Assembly (NCBI GenBank): GCA_052327205.1
Contig: CM126203.1
Location: 22,072,001 to 22,136,000 of the forward strand
Direction of reading: 5' to 3'
DNA length: 64,000 nucleotides
Source of the DNA: Somniosus microcephalus
Lineage: Eukaryota
Position 1 is the first letter of the stretch. Each line of letters opens with the position of its first letter. The translations under genes and the position numbers were made by a program. This document shows, one piece after another, positions 50,318 through 63,704 of the stretch. A model generated the notes under the pieces. That model made no database searches, had not been told where the DNA came from, and saw nothing but the letters and a program-made list of their open reading frames with translations.

Positions 50318-52410
50318 TTAGAGTCATAGAGTTTTACAGCACAGAAAGAGGCCCTTCGGCCCATCGTGTCTGCGCCGCCCATCCATCCCTGTCCAGTCTA
50401 ATCCCATTTTCCAGCATTTGGTCCATAGCCTTGTATGCAATGGCATTTCAAGTGCTCATCCAAATGCTTCTTGAATGTTGTGAGGGTTCCTGCCTCTACC
50501 ACCCTTTCAGGCATTGAGTTCCACATTCCAACCACCCTCTGGGTGAAGAAGTTCCTCCTCAAATCCCCTCTAAATCTCCTGCCCCTTACCCTGAATCTAT
50601 GCCCCCTTGTTATTGACCCCCCTACTAAGGGGAAAAGTTCCTCTTTATCTACCCTATCTATGCCCCTCATCATTTTGTACACCTCAATCAGGTCCCCCCT
50701 CAGCCTTCTTTGCTCCAAGGAAAACAACCCCAGCCTGTCCAGCCTCTCTTCATAGCTGAGGCGCTCCATCCCAGGTAACATCCTGGTGAATCTTCTCTGC
50801 ACCCTCTCCAAAGCAATCACATCCTTCCTATAGTGAGGCGACCAGAACTGCACACAGTACTCCAGCTGTGGCCTCACCAGCATTTTGTACAGCTCCATCA
50901 TAACCTCCCTGCTCTTATATTCTATGCCTCGGCTAATGAAGGCAAGTATCCCATATGCCTTTTTAACCACCTTATCTACCTGTTCCACTGCCTTCAGGGA
51001 TCTATGTACATGTACACCAAGGTCCCTCTGACCCTCTGTACTTCCTAGGGTCCTACCACTCATTGTGTATTCCCTTGCCTTATTTGTCCGTCCAAAATGC
51101 ATCACCTCGCACTTTTCAGGGTTAAATTCCATTTGCCACTTTTCCGCCCATCTGACCAACCCGTTTATATCGTCCTGTAGCCTGAGGCTTTCCTCCTCGC
51201 AATTTACCACCCCACCAATTTTCGTGTCATCTGCGAACTTACTGATCATACCTTTTACATTCTCATCCAAATCATTTATGTAGATCACAAACAACAAGGG
51301 ACCCAGCACCGATCCCTGAGGTACCCCACTGGACACAGGCTTCCAGTCACAAAAGCAACCTTCGACCATCACCCTCTGCCTCCTGCCACTCAGCCAGTTT
51401 AGGATCCCATGGGCTCTTACCTTCTTGACCAGTCTCCTATGCGGGACTTTGTCAAAAGCTTTACTGAAGTCCATGTAAACCACATCCACAGCATTTCCCT
51501 CATCCACCCCCCTAGTCACCCCCTCGAAAAATTCAATCAGATTTGTCAGACATGATTTACCCTTGACAAAGCCATGCTGACTATCCCCGATTAATCCTTG
51601 CCTCTCCAAGTGGAGACTAATTTTGTCCCTCAGAATTTTTTCCAATAATTTCCCTACCACAGATGTTAGGCTCACTGGCCTGTAATTCCCTGGTTTATCC
51701 CTGCTACCCTTCTTGAATAATGGTACTACGTTAGCTGTTCTCCAGTCCTCTGGTACATCCCCTGTGGCCAGAGAGGTTCTGAAAATTTGTGTCAGAGCCC
51801 CTGCAATCTCCTCCTTTGCCTCCCACAGCAGCCTGGGATACATCTCGTCCGGGCCTGGGGATTTATCCACTTTTTGGCCTGCTAAAACCGCTAGCACCTC
51901 CTCCCTCTCGATGCTAATATGTTCAAGTATGTCACAGTCCCCTTGCCCGATTTCTATGTCTGCATCGTCTTTCTCCATAGTGAACACAGATGCAAAAAAT
52001 TCATTTAAAACCCCGCCTACCTCATCTGGCTCTACACACAGATTGCCACTTTGGTCCCTAATGGGCCCTACCCTTTCCCTGGTTATCCTCTTGCCCTTAA
52101 TATACTTATAAAACATCTTAGGATTTTCCTTTATTTTGCTCGCCAGTGTTATTTCATGGCCCCTCCTCACCCTCCTAATTTCTTTTTTAAGTACGCCCCT
52201 GCACTTTTTATACTCCTCTAGGGCTTCTTCTGTCTTTAGTCTTTTGTAACTGCCAAAAGCCCCCCTTTTATTCCTAATGCATTTTTGTATATCCCTTGTC
52301 ATCCAAGGTTCCCTTTGCTTGTTGGTCCCACCCTTGACCTTTACAGGAACATGTTGGCGTTGTACTCTCTCTATTTCCCTTCTGAAAGTCTCCCACTGTT
52401 TTGATGTCTT
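50318..52410 (-). mobile_element. Young 5'-truncated CR1 LINE nested in an older CR1 fragment (50260-50317 and 52411-52560)
   Basis: Uninterrupted RT reading frame, 3' UTR and tail; older CR1 sequence on both sides. Confidence 0.92.
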
Positions 52411-52419
52411 GGTTGACAT
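50398..52419 (-). pseudogene. CR1 ORF2 fragment, 673 open codons (RT, no endonuclease)
   Basis: [33 protein letters not shown]; short in-frame deletion at AHGI/LNWL. Confidence 0.9.
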
Positions 52420-53289
52420 TATCTAGTCCCTTCAGAATCTTAAAAGCAGCAATCACCTCTCTCAGCCTTCTCTTTTCCAGTGAGAACGGGCCCAAGTTTA
52501 CATAATCGCTCCTCAAAATTCACTCTGCTCAAACAATCTGGCTGCTCTCTTCTGTATCCTTTATATAGAGATCAGTGTCTAACAAAGAATGGTACATGGC
52601 ACATGGGAGGAAGGAATCAACAGGAATCTGAAAACATTGTTTAAAAAAACACAGTGGATAGGTTGTGTTGGGTTGCCAAGATGCAAGCCCAGAGCTTCTC
52701 CATGATCCTCTGGACGCTCCAACAACTACAGTTCAGTAGAAGGTACTAACTCTGTATCTGAACACCTGCAGGCAAGGAACGGAATTCCAGGTGACCGCAC
52801 TGCCTGGAAGACTATTCCGGGGTGGGAAAAGCTGGTGTTTCATACAAACCTTGATGCGGAATGCTGAGGGTCACATACAGCAGAGCTTGCAATTGTGCCA
52901 TGAGTGGGGACATCGGGCAGAAAACGTCGTCGCCGCCGTTTTGGATCAGGGCCTTGCAGAGGACCGACAAAGCAAAGTCTGAGAAGCTGGACTCTAGGGA
53001 GGATGAGCTTTATGCAGCATGGTCTTAACTGAGTCCAGAAGTAATAGAATGGGTTTTCTCTGCAGCAAACACTCATATGATGACACTAACAAGTAACACA
53101 TTGTTTATCTGGACAGCTTTGAAACTATTGCTGTATAACTCAATTAGCAAGAAGATTGGGTAATTGAAATTATGCCTGATGGTGGAGTGGTCAACATACT
53201 TGCTCAAAGATCTCAGTCGCTTTTATTTTATAGTGTTACCTAGCAACAGCTACAATTAATATTTCATACATCAACCATTTGCTGCCCAA

Positions 53290-56579: not shown

Positions 56580-57306
56580 CTGAAATGGGAAGACGACACT
56601 GAAATGCTGAAACTCTAGTACAATAACAACGGCCACTGGTCAGCAATCAAGATTTTACCCATGCAGTGGCCTTAACAACTCTAGTAAAACTACTAACCCG
56701 TTAGCTAAATGTTTCATATAGAGGGTGTAAAAAAGTCCTTTTGCTAAACACTCATTTTCCCTGGACGGCCAGGAACTTGCCAGGACAGTGAGCTTGTCAG
56801 TACTCCAGAAATGGAACTGAAAACATCCTGAGCATTTCAAATTGCGACAACAATCAGAGGTACACTTTTACTGGTCTACCGCATGCTCAAAACATAAGAA
56901 TTCTACTTAGCCTTATGACAGATACTCTAAATAATTGGAACGTTTTTGGCCAATTTGAACATCTTGTGCTGGCCTGAGCTACAGGTTTAAAATTTGACAA
57001 ACTTGTGTTGACCTCACTCTCTCTCTCTCTAATGATTTCACAACCCTGGCATTATTTTACATCCCAACCTCCTCTTAGTCTTTCCACGGCCCTGGCCAAT
57101 GCTTCACTTTAAGTTGGCTGTTGCATTTTTATGAATGCCCCAGTTTTCCACCCCTCGCTGTTGGGACAGCATCTGAGAGAGATTACCCAGGAGGATCAAA
57201 GCTGAGTGATCTAAAGCCAAGGGGGGCAAAATTCGGTATCGCCCCCGTTTGGGGCGCAATTATCGGCCGGGCGCAAAGTTTAGTGCCTGGCACTAATTAT
57301 CGCCTC

Positions 57307-57560
57307 TGTAGTGTATGTATCCGTCTACCTTTAAGAAAACCATTGTATGTAACCGTTCACCTTTAAGAGAACTATTTTAGGTGTGGCACTACTTTGTTGG
57401 CTTCTGTATACTGTAATACCGACGGTGACCACACCGGTATATAAGTGCTGTGTCAGGATTTATTTGGCAGATTCGCCCTGACCTTCGAATAGTAAAGTCC
57501 TGTTTTAAGTTACTCTGGTAGTCTGTGTATTAATTAACTAAACAACTCACAGACTTTACA
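57307..57560 (+). repeat. 5' LTR
   Basis: TGTAG...TTACA; TATATAA at 57438; AGTAAA at 57491. Confidence 0.97.
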
Positions 57561-57561
57561 G

Positions 57562-57571
57562 TGGCGACGAG
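57562..57571 (+). other. Primer-binding site TGGCGACGAG (complementary to the 3' end of tRNA-Ser GCU)
   Basis: 1 nt after the 5' LTR; tRNA identity from recall. Confidence 0.75.
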
Positions 57572-58126
57572 TCCGATCGTACCCTGCGGCAACAATACTT
57601 CCGAAGCAGTTAACGAGCGTCGAGAAGAGGCAACCGCCCTCGTCATTCTGCTGGGAGAAAACTCGAGGCTGCAGAACTAGAAAGGAGGAAGAATTCAGAG
57701 ACAAAGACTTCCATCAGCAACAGGCACTGACTGTCCCTTCTGCCACGGTGAGGAGTGAGCCGATCAGCATGAGAAGCAAGCCGGCCACGGTGACTGTGAG
57801 TAAGGGAAAAGTAAAAAAGTAAAAAGAATAACCGGAGGATAAGGGCGGTGCACATGACCACGGTCGAGGGGGAAAGGAGCCGGACAGAAGTCGGGCCCAG
57901 AGGCGCTGAGACTGGGGCAGCGTGGAGCAAGGAAGCCGTGGTACAGACAGGCTGGGGACGCAATGGCGTCGTGAGACAGCTAGACCGTGACCGGCGAAAA
58001 AGGCCGGGCAGCGACCGAAGCCACGAAGCGCTGCGACTGGGAGCGTAGGCGCGGGAAGATATAAAAACTCAGCCACAGCCGGGGAGGGAAGCACCGGACT
58101 GCGAGAGGGCTGGGAGGCGCGATTGG

Positions 58127-58338
58127 GAGCCGAGCGAGCGGGAGAGGCAGAGCCGACCAAGGGAGACTGAGTGAGAGCCAGTCCAGCGGCTGAAACTGTT
58201 CGCCGTCAACGGGGTGTACCCAGCGCCGGTAGAGCCGAGCGAGCGGGAGAGAGACAGAGCCCGAGCAAGGGGAACTGAGCGAGAGCCAGCCCAGCGGCTG
58301 AAACTGTTCGCCGTCAACGGGGTGTACCCAGCGCCGGT
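58127..58338 (+). repeat. ~105-bp tandem duplication in the element's leader
   Basis: Both units end CCAGCGGCTGAAACTGTTCGCCGTCAACGGGGTGTACCCAGCGCCGGT. Confidence 0.9.
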
Positions 58339-58625
58339 TGCCCTGCCGAGAAAAGGGAAAGCACTGAAGCCGACGCGCAGGCTGTGAACCTGAAAGCCAG
58401 CGGCCGTCGCCCGTGGGGAAAGTGTACCCCTCCCGCCAGGGGAAGAAACGCGGGAAGCCGCCATTAGGCGGAGAAGAAGACAGAAGCGGGGAACCGCCAT
58501 TGAAGTGGGCGGGGAGAGAAGATAAGCGCGGGAAACCGCCATTTTCGCGGGAACCGCCATCTTGGAAAAAAAAATAAAAGAAAATTTAAAGAAATAATTC
58601 GTGGTGTTATCAGGAAGAGAGGAAG

Positions 58626-59795
58626 ATGCCTAAGCGTGGTAACATCAACGATTTTAATTCCGAGGTAGAAGACTGGGCCACGTATGTGGAACGCATTGAG
58701 ATCTATTGTGAGGCCAATAAAATAGAAGATGACGACAAAGCTATAACCTTGCTAAACTCGATGGGCGCGAAGACATACGGGCTCTTGAAGCATCTACTAG
58801 CACCAGCTAAACCGGCGGATCAGACTTTCGATGATATTGTGACTGTTCTGAAGGATCACTTGAACCCCACACCGTTGATGTTGGCGGAACGATTCAAATT
58901 CTATGCGAGAACGCAAAGGAAAGACAAAAGCAACGCAGAATACTTGGTCGAACTGCGTAGACTAGCGAAACACTGCCAGTTTGGAGGGAATCTGACAGAG
59001 GCATTGCGAGACAAGTTCGTGTGCAGGTTGTCAAAGGAAGGAACGCAAAAGCGACTACTCGAAGAGAACGACCTTACACTTGACAGGGCTGTCCTTATTG
59101 CAGCATCGCACGAAGCCGCAGCGAAGGGAACTGCGGAAATGCAGCTAAAGGCAGCGGCACTCAGTGTGGATCAAATTACCTCGAGTACAACAAAATGCTA
59201 TCGTTGTGAGAAGACAACACACGACCAGAACCAATGCTGGTTTAAGAACCAGGAATGTAGGAAATGTGGCAAACTGGGTCACATAGCTAAGGTATGCCGG
59301 TCAGGGAAGAAGACCAACAACCAAAGGAAGCCATCACAGGAAAAGTACAACAAGGTACACAAGGTGGCTGAGAAGAGTTCAGACGAACAGAATTCGGACT
59401 CAGACCCAAACGGCCAGGAGCTGGGCAGTCTGAGAATTCACAATGTGAGTAAGGAAGCTGACCTACAAACTATCTGGGTCATGCTAAAAATAGCTGGAGT
59501 CCAAGTGAAAATGGAGTTGGACACTGGATCAGCTCTATCAGTCATAAATCGAAGGGATTACCACCGGCTATTCTCACATATACCCTTAAGAGATACCAAG
59601 TTCGTATTGCAGACATACACGGGGCATAAAGTATACCCCATGGGGAAGATAAGAGTCAAGGTGAGAGATGGGGGTAAAGAACACCCAAGAATGAACTTAT
59701 ACGTACTACCTGAGGGAGGACCACCACTTCTGGGACGGGAGTGGATCAAGAAAATAGACATGGAATGGCACTATCTAAAAGCCATAACGAGTTAG
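58626..59795 (+). CDS. gag: Gypsy Gag-protease (389 aa)
   Basis: WATYVERI, AERFKFY.R.Q, LRDKFV; two CCHC knuckles (CYRCEKTTHDQNQC, CRKCGKLGHIAKVC); protease LDTGSALSVI and LLGREWI. Confidence 0.93.
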   Translation: MPKRGNINDFNSEVEDWATYVERIEIYCEANKIEDDDKAITLLNSMGAKTYGLLKHLLAPAKPADQTFDDIVTVLKDHLNPTPLMLAERFKFYARTQRKDKSNAEYLVELRRLAKHCQFGGNLTEALRDKFVCRLSKEGTQKRLLEENDLTLDRAVLIAASHEAAAKGTAEMQLKAAALSVDQITSSTTKCYRCEKTTHDQNQCWFKNQECRKCGKLGHIAKVCRSGKKTNNQRKPSQEKYNKVHKVAEKSSDEQNSDSDPNGQELGSLRIHNVSKEADLQTIWVMLKIAGVQVKMELDTGSALSVINRRDYHRLFSHIPLRDTKFVLQTYTGHKVYPMGKIRVKVRDGGKEHPRMNLYVLPEGGPPLLGREWIKKIDMEWHYLKAITS

Positions 59796-60029
59796 GACTC
59801 GGTGCAGACAATCAGCTCAGATTCTGAAACGGATGACGATAAGACCAACCCAAATATGAAAGACAAGGCTAAAATGGACTTGCCGACTAAGGTTGGAAGA
59901 ACGAAGGCATGCATAAAGGCTTATGCTCCAGAGAAGAACAAAGTTTCAGAACAGAACTCCACCGAACAACGACAACATAGTTTGACAGAGAATTCTGAGT
60001 CTGTTCAGTTTACGGACATATCCATGACT

Positions 60030-60162
60030 GACGAACTCGGACTCAACTTTATTTCAAATTACGACAGCAAGTAGAACAAGTGAGTTACCGTCTCGAACAA
60101 GAGATGAAAACAATGAAAAAGTTCTATGACACCGAATGGGAGAATCTGGAAAGACAACAGAG
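60030..60162 (+). pseudogene. Captured STK10/SLK coiled-coil (PKK) fragment
   Basis: Frame absent from the ORF track: RTQLYFKLRQQVEQVSYRLEQEMKTMKKFYDTEWENLERQQ, vs STK10 [23 protein letters not shown] (recalled). Confidence 0.75.
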
Positions 60163-61536
60163 CAGCTAGCTCAAGCAGAGAGCAACCATAGAGCCATTGT
60201 GACCAATTACCGATCACATCTCCCTTATGCTGTTCAGGAGTTAGAATATTTGCAGGAAGGAGCAAATGAAGAGGAATCTTCAGGAAGCCAGGATTTTATT
60301 CCCGTTCTTCTCTACGACTCCTTACAAGCAGAGTTTGAGAAGTTGAAGGAACAGTATGAACAGGCCCAGGCTACAATCCTGGAGGGGATTAACTCGGCAA
60401 CCTCCGAAAAGCTAGTTTCAGTAGAAGCATATGAGCAACTGAAGGTTGAACATGAGCAAGAAGTCCAAAGGCTGCAGGAAATTCTTGATGAGCTCAAGGC
60501 CAAGACAGACTCATCGGTAGAAGTTCCATCCATAGATGAGAAATTAGAGGTGAAAGACATGGCAGAACATGAAAGACAAGATGTCCAAGAACTCATAAAA
60601 ATATTGAAGGAAACCCAAGACAAATATGAGGCGGCAATGACTGAGGTTCAACAACTTGAAGAACAGATTCAACTGGGAATCCTTTCAGTGGAAGAAAAGG
60701 AAACTGTAAGAAACACAGAGACTGTAAGAATGGCCCCTGAACATGAGCTAGAGAGCATCAAGGCGCAACTTCTCCGAGCGCTGAAAGCCAAAGTACAAGA
60801 GGAAAAGAAGGTGAAAACATTGGAGGAAAAGGTGGATGAAATGGAGAAGACTCTGATCCACAGTGTTCCCGTGGAAGAGTTAACGGTCAGCCAACTCCTT
60901 CATATGCTGAGGGACAAGACTCTGCAATGGGAACAATCTGAACACGAGCTTCAATCTTCAAAGGGAAGGAGTTCAGAGCTCTCAAAAGTTATGGAAATAG
61001 CTGAGGTTGCAACACAGATTTTACTGGGATGCCAAAAGTATGCTGAATCACGTCTATGTGAACAACAGAATGTTGAAACAGCTGCTCCAGTAGAAGGATT
61101 GAATAGCCTGATCAATCAATCCCCGATGGAAGGGGAAGTATTGAAATCACAAATGAGGTCATTAGTGAAGGATTTGCAGGAAACCCAGGAAGAGCGGGAT
61201 GAATATGAACGCATGAAGAAGTCTCTTCAGGAAAGATGTCTAGGGAGGGAACAACAGTCGGCTAACGTCCAGTTGGGTAAGGAAGAAGTAGCAGGCCCTC
61301 TCGCTAGACTAGTTCAGGACGACACCGAATATTACCATGACCTGTTGAGTGACACGGAATATTACGAGGACTTGGTCTGCCCAGCTTGTGATGAAAACTC
61401 CCAAAGTGCAGTAATCAGGATGAAGCACTTAAAGTCTAAGGAACATAGAGAGATGGTGGTGCTACAGCTGGCAGCTGATAAGGGAACCCCGAGAGTCTCC
61501 AAGAAGCAGAAAAGAAAAAGACGAAGCAGAAGGTGA
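60136..61536 (+). CDS. 466-aa chimeric coiled-coil cargo ORF: ANKRD24-like (60163-60879), OPTN-like (60874 to about 61300), DNAJC21-like zinc finger and basic tail (61321-61533)
   Basis: YRSHLPYAVQ and FIPVLLYDSLQAEF (ANKRD24); EELTVSQLL and MKKSLQERC (OPTN); DLVCPACD..HLKSKEHREMV..SKKQK (DNAJC21); assignments from recall. Confidence 0.8.
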   Translation: MGESGKTTEQLAQAESNHRAIVTNYRSHLPYAVQELEYLQEGANEEESSGSQDFIPVLLYDSLQAEFEKLKEQYEQAQATILEGINSATSEKLVSVEAYEQLKVEHEQEVQRLQEILDELKAKTDSSVEVPSIDEKLEVKDMAEHERQDVQELIKILKETQDKYEAAMTEVQQLEEQIQLGILSVEEKETVRNTETVRMAPEHELESIKAQLLRALKAKVQEEKKVKTLEEKVDEMEKTLIHSVPVEELTVSQLLHMLRDKTLQWEQSEHELQSSKGRSSELSKVMEIAEVATQILLGCQKYAESRLCEQQNVETAAPVEGLNSLINQSPMEGEVLKSQMRSLVKDLQETQEERDEYERMKKSLQERCLGREQQSANVQLGKEEVAGPLARLVQDDTEYYHDLLSDTEYYEDLVCPACDENSQSAVIRMKHLKSKEHREMVVLQLAADKGTPRVSKKQKRKRRSRR

Positions 61537-61914
61537 TAACCATCTAAATCATTATCACTTCTACCAGATCATGTACGTGGGCCCTACGAAGGGAGCCAAA
61601 TCAGTTGGCAAGTAGGAAAAATTACCAAGGCAGTCCAGCTGTTTGTAAAAGTCAGCACTGCTGGTTCAGCAGGACGGAAGTTCAAGCTGTTAAGTCAAGG
61701 GAAAGACTATTGGATGAGTCACGCTAGCAATGTGAACCGGCTACACCACAGAGATGTTGTTCGGACCGAATCAAGACCAGAGACTGAATCTGTGAACTGT
61801 TCCCGCAGAGACTGAATCTGTAAACTGTTTCCCGCATAGATTATACCTGTGAATTGTTTTACATGAAGTTGAATATATGTTATGTTTAATGGGGGACTAA
61901 GTATGTTGTAAGCT

Positions 61915-61926
61915 AAAAAGGGAGGA
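61915..61926 (+). other. Polypurine tract
   Basis: AAAAAGGGAGGA immediately before the 3' LTR. Confidence 0.9.
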
Positions 61927-61927
61927 T

Positions 61928-62181
61928 TGTAGTGTATGTATCCGTCTACCTTTAAGAAAACCATTGTATGTAACCGTTCACCTTTAAGAGAACTATTTTA
62001 GGTGTGGCACTACTTTGTTGGCTTCTGTATACTGTAATACCGACGGTGACCACACCGGTATATAAGTGCTGTGTCAGGATTTATTTGGCAGATTCGCCCT
62101 GACCTTCGAATAGTAAAGTCCTGTTTTAAGTTACTCTGGTAGTTTGTGTATTAGTTAACTAAACAACTCACAGACTTTACA
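61928..62181 (+). repeat. 3' LTR
   Basis: 252/254 identical to the 5' LTR. Confidence 0.97.
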
Positions 62182-63704
62182 GCCTCCGACTGCAAACTTG
62201 GCTTCTATTGCCCCTGGAGGTGATTGGAGCGCTAAATCAGGTGCTACACACCTCTCTTAAGGTGCTAATGCCGAGGAGCGAGGCGCTACCTCAGAGCGTT
62301 GGCGAAACTCATGTGATGTCAGTCAGCAATGGAACACAGACACACTGGCGCCAGCCAGTTCTTAAAGGGGAGGGTCGATCTTGTTCTCCATCCACACCCT
62401 GCTCATTGCAGCCTTGAATCTCGGCCTGGAGAGACCTGTAAATCAAATCTGCTGGAAAGAACAATGGAGAGGCCGAGGGAAAGAGCTCAGAGTGCAGCCC
62501 CCATAGTCTCTTCTAAATCGATGCAAGGAAGGTCAAATCAAAATGAACCTGCAAAGTGCTGCTCAGTACTCAAAGCTCCTTCACACCGCATTGAATCTCC
62601 CCAGAAGTCTCTCTCTCTCAGAATGTGTGGTGCAAAAATGTCGCCGACAAAAAAAGGCAGGAAGCGGTCGCCTTTAAATAGCGCTCCCCCAGTCCCTTCC
62701 CAACTGCAAAATGTTCCCCTCAACTTGTCGTTGCTAGCGGCAGGCGGAAAGGCAGGGGGCGCCACTCAGTATCCGGTCCGGGGCGCTACTGGGGTGTTGC
62801 ACGCTCGACTGATGTCACAATCTGCAGGCGCAGGAGATCGTGGTGGTACTGTTTAGTGCCGCCGCAAAATGTCTGGTCAATTTCGCGAGCGGCGCAAACA
62901 TCGCCGCGCCCGGGCGCTAGTTGCTTTGTAACCCATTAGCGCCCTCTTAGGGTGCTAATGGGAGGCGCAAAGCAACCAAATTTTTCCCCCCAAGGTCTTT
63001 TGACCCTGAGTCTAACACTCAACCGCTGAGTTACTCTACCTGGATTCTGTTTCACTCCTCAATACAAATAGCTATTCTGAGATCTGCAGTATGCAAAGGA
63101 AGATGAGCATGAAGTCCCCTGTTGCACCACTCTTTTGGTGCTGCTACACACCCAGTGAGGGCAGGTCTACTCATAAAACTTGCAAACTGTTCTTCATGGA
63201 GAAAGCTGGTTCCAATGTATGTAAAAACTAGGAGAATCTCTGCATTCTAGCTGTGCTTCTAAATGTATAAAGTTCTCAACTCATGCACAGAGAGTGATCA
63301 TAATATTCAATAAGCCTCACAGTGCAGAGAACTTTTCATCTTCTAGCTGTTGCAATCTCTTCCCAAAGAGAAAGTGGTAAGTTTTGTGCAAATACCATTG
63401 CAAAAATATTCATCTGTTTGTGTTGTAACTGTTTCAGAACTGCAGTAGCAGTTCCACATCAAAATATAAAGCATCACATGTGCCATCGGAGCATAGGAAT
63501 GAACAGGAGTGACATAAGAAAACTACTAGGCACTTGGTCTAAGCGTTAAACAAAGCTTTAATCAACTATTTTACAACATGGAGGTCTAGTTGTCCTTCAC
63601 TAGTTCCTGTTAAGAATGTCCTGCACAAGCTGGGCCCGTACCCGAGTATTTATACTCTCCCTGGACAGCGCCAGCCGCAGGCCGCTCAGATGATTCATGT
63701 CAAG

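Follow-up and report, generated by a model that had tools for sequence, protein, structure and literature searches.

How does a retrotransposon come to carry two parts of one host gene in the reverse of their genomic order? The question is raised by a 64,000-nucleotide stretch of the Somniosus microcephalus genome (GCA_052327205.1, CM126203.1, positions 22,072,001 to 22,136,000; hereafter the window). A sequence-only reading of the window had recognised, at 60163-60330, a segment from near the C-terminus of an ANKRD24-family protein joined to a segment that lies far upstream in the parent protein, and we reproduced the translation on which this was based. We consider it very probable that a reverse transcriptase switched onto an ANKRD24 circRNA, which would explain the block of ANKRD24 sequence in an LTR element without pol.

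The ANKRD24 block is enclosed by a young, pol-less LTR retrotransposon (57307-62181, forward strand, as are all of its parts given here), a high-copy setting to which the sequence-only reading had not referred. The two LTRs (57307-57560 and 61928-62181; 254 nt, TG...CA) differ by 2 mismatches and are bordered by a 5-bp target-site duplication (57302-57306 and 62182-62186). The copies L079 and L080 also have 5-bp duplications, and each of the three is distinct. A TGG motif resembling a primer-binding site lies directly inside the 5' LTR (57562-57571) and a polypurine tract precedes the 3' LTR (61915-61927), both recognised by sequence. Gag, with a CCHC knuckle, and an aspartic protease occupy 58626-59795 (PF13650, E = 1.3e-6, above the cut-off; PF00098, E = 1e-3, just under the cut-off), and no reverse transcriptase (RT), RNase H or integrase was found after the protease in the window element. 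The features of a non-autonomous Ty3/gypsy-type element are thus all present (LTRs, target-site duplication, primer-binding-site-like motif, polypurine tract, gag with CCHC, protease), with RT and integrase absent; the element may belong to a Mag-like clade. The 5' leader holds a short tandem duplication of about 105 nt (58127-58338) and the 3' untranslated part one of 28 nt (61778-61832). Elsewhere in the window, 1-1450 and 50401-52422 contain remnants of another gypsy-like pol and a LINE-like reading frame, as judged by eye from the translations.

The ANKRD24 block has neighbors from other host genes. An STK10-derived cargo remnant (59789-60167), with 81-88% DNA identity to three host STK10 exons, comes before it. 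An optineurin-derived piece (60874-61290), in frame and colinear at the protein level, comes after it. The frame ends in a C2H2-like zinc finger and basic tail (61300-61536; zf-C2H2_2, E = 0.005, and zf-C2H2_jaz, E = 0.02, both below cut-offs), which may be DNAJC21-like; a PDB search with the basic tail gave no match. The L055 subfamily has a different zinc-finger piece at this place. In the window copy the frame is broken by a stop at 59793-59795, and it has short deletions, near 60036 and 60161, that most other copies lack. Eight of 19 other copies, chosen as top matches to the window, have a single frame of 978-991 codons from gag to the basic tail.

When 60163-60840 was compared with known proteins, 24 members of the ANKRD24/ankycorbin family matched, with shark proteins at the top (82%). 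The names of the matches suggest ANKRD24 rather than RAI14 or UACA: all eight coelacanth and reptile matches carry that name, and the shark matches are named ankycorbin or ANKRD24-like. One shark ANKRD24-like protein (P0002) holds both pieces, as residues 1055-1080 and from residue 493 onward. Searching the host genome with P0002 yielded one host large exon (C13:62861843-62863372), and the other 41 of the 42 scored matches were of the element type. The exons at this locus are here called A to E. Exon A ends at C13:62846597 and exon E starts at C13:62875286; between them, each with AG/GT edges, lie exon B (C13:62861849-62863360, 1,512 nt), exon C (C13:62866502-62866666, 165 nt) and exon D (C13:62873348-62873413, 66 nt). 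Host identity is 95.5% over 67 nt for exon D and 97.4% over 648 nt for exon B, and the two are 11.5 kb apart at one locus. Both pieces therefore come from one parent, and an origin from different paralogues is ruled out. A full ANKRD24-bearing element, 95% identical to the window copy, lies in antisense orientation within the very gene from which its block derives, in the C-D intron (C13:62867070-62871961, L041-L042). With about 1,300 copies and an 11.5-kb target such an insertion is unlikely, but it may be due to chance.

The block (60161-60880) is 720 nt long, comes from this one ANKRD24-like gene and has 20 mismatches relative to the host. It is made up of the last 11 nt of exon C (60161-60171), the whole 66-nt exon D, which is the penultimate coding exon (60172-60237), and the first 643 of the 1,512 nt of the large upstream exon B (60238-60880). 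The segment before the non-colinear joint had been correctly assigned to ANKRD24 but was regarded as a single piece, when it is in fact two exons, with 11 nt of C spliced normally to all of D. The C|D joint is exact and the 6.7-kb host intron is missing. At the D|B joint (60237|60238) the exon D donor (in the host GTTCAG|gt, C13:62873413) meets the exon B acceptor (ttcag|GAG, C13:62861849) with no base gained or lost relative to the splice sites. The breakpoints had been placed at or near exon boundaries. Mapping onto the exon structure makes this precise: both joined edges are exact splice sites of the host gene, a downstream donor joined to an upstream acceptor. A blastn of the element against 200 kb of the host locus gave matches to B and D and none to exons A and E; the end of C was recognised by inspection. 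The same D|B joint is present in 31 of 31 element copies compared, and a 25-mer spanning it is matched exactly at 1,283 sites (658 + 625) of the 6.45-Gb genome, with 0 for the reversed control. Near the joint, element copies and host differ at the positions equivalent to 60206, 60224 and 60256.

The outer ends of the block both fall within exons and can be read against relatives that do not carry ANKRD24. In a sister subfamily (L053-L077; 417 candidates, 25 loci fetched) STK10 runs into optineurin, and closer relatives (L081-L084), with 86% identity in gag-PR, likewise have no ANKRD24. The direct precursor was not seen, as these nearest relatives found reach only 86%. At the 5' end of the block, 7 nt (60161-60167) are common to ANKRD24 and the STK10 cargo in 5/5 ANKRD24-less relatives. 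At the 3' end, 7 nt (60874-60880) are common with the optineurin cargo in 4/5 relatives (L081-L084), and 4 nt in L055. Such 7-nt matches inside exons make the outer joints look like template switches by reverse transcriptase. Between the two intact LTRs, the block stands in for 43 nt of the L053-L077 subfamily and, relative to L082, for a longer STK10/optineurin stretch. In L081-L084 and further matches, STK10 is interrupted by a long optineurin piece (residues 131-426) and the open frames are 900-1,100 codons long; the STK10 pieces in these optineurin-interrupted subfamilies keep a permuted order. A relative at C13:62971370-62973922 encodes gag, protease and integrase in a single frame of 851 codons that lacks RT and RNase H (by eye).

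The two inner joints, C|D and D|B, look like products of the spliceosome. The simplest template that would contain both is a B-C-D circle, and we infer a circular template rather than a scrambled linear RNA. Exons B, C and D together are 1,743 nt, in frame and stop-free. Inverted repeats in introns promote back-splicing. Here, an inverted repeat of about 450 bp (80%, 408 bits) has one arm 0.9 kb upstream of B and the other 1.2 kb downstream of D and is the only inverted match among 10 acceptor/donor pairs within 1.9 kb. The 408-bit score is reached by 3 of 150 random pairs of windows, which overlap and are non-independent. The best other matches of the repeat arms are at 91% and 80-89%, against 96-98% between block and host; the arms are thus likely to predate the capture.

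We propose that the host made the 1,743-nt circle, probably aided by the inverted repeat in the flanking introns, and that this circular ANKRD24 RNA was co-packaged with element RNA. During minus-strand synthesis, RT would have departed from the element at the match on the optineurin side, copied the first part of B, crossed the back-splice, passed through D, entered C and returned to the element at the match on the STK10 side. Pol-bearing relatives would afterwards have provided RT and integrase in trans, allowing the chimera to spread. One such relative lies at C13:62918486-62921914, with the order PR-RT-RH-IN (motifs read by eye). Two RNA runs (X14, X15; 24% and 31% read) gave no reads on exon E, at a coverage too thin to judge circRNA. 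On exons D-E, runs X14, X15, X11 and X12 gave repeat-derived reads and 8 molecules covering the first 32 nt of D, which are indistinguishable from element RNA.

A second joint of this kind is found in the STK10 cargo. Most of 47 elements scored have STK10 residues 385-709 followed by residues ~290-392. Like most of those 47, the element L085 (C7:143388562-143392563) belongs to an STK10-only subfamily, in which pol is replaced by a full turn of a circle of five STK10 exons (residues 385-709, then 290-388). Where the turn is entered and where it is left overlap at one place in the large exon. In L085 this cargo is 98-99% identical to host exons on C8. At its permuted joint, the donor at C8:167191933 and the upstream acceptor at C8:167198433 meet exactly, and they share 2 nt. 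No inverted repeat flanking the STK10 circle was found within 1.9, 5 or 7.9 kb, so that a repeat is not general, which speaks against regarding it as a requirement. With two genes in one family each giving an exact joint in back-splice order, chance switches or lost duplications are unlikely explanations. An STK10-bearing element apparently lies just upstream of the host STK10 gene (C8:167311797-167318605). A further locus (L091, C3:354658676-354658948) is an intronless stretch in a 277-codon frame that spans an exon border of the STK10 C-terminal region at 97% identity and is possibly another retrocopy or cargo.

The sequence-only reading had proposed a circular RNA template or an exon-scrambled transcript, and exact splice sites within a single gene support that proposal. 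A linear exon-scrambled mRNA (B-C-D-B...), from a tandem duplication since lost or collapsed in the assembly or from trans-splicing, would produce the same exact joint, and since the captured part is 720 of 1,743 nt, less than one turn, such a template would also fit. We nevertheless regard it as unlikely. No tandem duplication of B-D was found in this assembly, where 200 kb of the locus hold one copy each of B, C and D, and among the scored candidates D and B are each flanked by intron sequence at a single place only. No repeat is present in the five family proteins read from end to end, the repeats around B-D within 1.9 kb are inverted, not direct, and STK10 would need the same lost duplication.

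It had also been suggested that the templates were switched on shared codons, that is, by a third switch between or within linear ANKRD24 RNAs on the CAG|G shared by the splice sites. This has some footing, in that the family switches templates often and the D-to-B pair has a microhomology of 4 nt with spliced mRNA (the longest of 10 donor/acceptor pairs), which grows to 6 nt if the RNA still contains the intron; a switch there would be favored more than a uniform model assumes. In a six-exon model of the host mRNA, however, 9,335 possible backward jumps share 4 nt or more, 4,377 of them in frame, and in either set a single one, D-to-B, connects a donor exactly with an acceptor. Only 2 nt are shared at the STK10 joint, which is exact nonetheless, and the matches at the two real switch points span 7 nt and lie within exons. 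This route would also take three switches where the circle takes two. We find this explanation highly improbable. Still less credence is given to a route in which D (with its donor) and B (with its acceptor) were taken up separately, from RNA that was unspliced or from DNA, and the element transcript was spliced afterwards. That route would give exactness without a circle, and a family copy does lie inside the host C-D intron, though antisense and already with the block. Against it, the candidates scored (40 of 674 and 40 of 1,159) include no second host copy and no intron-bearing copy or intermediate, and even the most divergent copies examined, L078 and L079, carry the finished joint. A circular ANKRD24 template is thus the reading that we prefer.

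Pairwise divergence among 21 copies has a median of 0.8%, and L078 (C7:161 Mb) and L079 (C1:285 Mb) are about 3% from the others. These two have a host-type base near the joint, but a special status was rejected: they are ordinary full-block copies, as is L080 (C2:85 Mb). Between the single copies L055 and L012, dN/dS is 0.12 in gag, 0.20 in the protease, 0.43 in STK10, 0.54 in optineurin and 0.88 in the tail. The host and L012 blocks differ by 8 amino acids. For 5 of them the change clearly lies with the element, and two of these residues do not vary in 5/5 other sharks. The block differences from the host that are common to the copies are 9 synonymous and 7 nonsynonymous, unpolarised. Neither dN/dS nor the residue comparison points to a function of the ANKRD24 peptide. 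We think it more likely that the cargo is tolerated as in-frame filler than that it has a selected ANKRD24 function, a reading that agrees with the dN/dS values and the element-side changes. More tentatively, and with more doubt than conviction, the LTR family may preferentially package and copy host circRNAs. Stop-free, in-frame circles (STK10 first, ANKRD24 later) would then be interchangeable as filler, holding the gag-protease frame open where pol is missing, and the elements would be a genome-wide fossil record of germline circRNAs.

The closest known case is that of the circRFWD2 pseudogenes of mouse (33 copies), with LTR-rich flanks, for which the mechanism was left open as "mysterious" in the text available to us (Dong et al., 2016, PMC4897178), a view that two reviews repeat. 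As far as that text goes, the two cases share a non-colinear exon-exon junction fixed in the genome, many copies per circle and LTR flanks. The LTR link there is one of enrichment, whereas the shark case has both switch points and relatives without the cargo; the shark block is also in frame with gag-protease and present in at least 1,283 copies. In LTR-mediated retrocopies (Tan et al., 2016, PMC5131818), as in the shark element, host RNA replaces internal sequence in sense orientation, chimeras of several genes form and retrotransposition continues. Microsimilarity at the switch points has a median of 6 bp there and is 7 nt in the shark element. The string "circ" occurs 0 times in the main text of that paper, whereas the RNA captured in the shark is in back-splice order. 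The maize element Bs1 is likewise an LTR element with pieces of three host genes and a chimeric reading frame, but it is from a plant, and no circular template is mentioned in the parts of the two sources available (PMC5131818, PMC13317346). We found no report of circANKRD24 in the literature searched, mostly outside subscription journals, in which the ANKRD24 mentions checked were in mRNA tables only. Likewise, an incomplete search yielded no account of the shark element family, nor of a circRNA captured through template switching at switch points that are resolved; related cases may be listed in the supplements of PMC4897178 and PMC5131818.

The back-splice joint, both switch points and relatives without the cargo are visible together in one genome. 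The route by which circRNAs are retrotransposed was left open in the available text of Dong et al. (2016, PMC4897178); the shark case supports template switching inside LTR particles and makes that route testable. The proposal implies that circANKRD24 was present in shark germline or early embryonic cells. In RNA-seq of this species, false circRNA calls would also arise from the genomic copies of the back-splice junction, which number at least 1,283.
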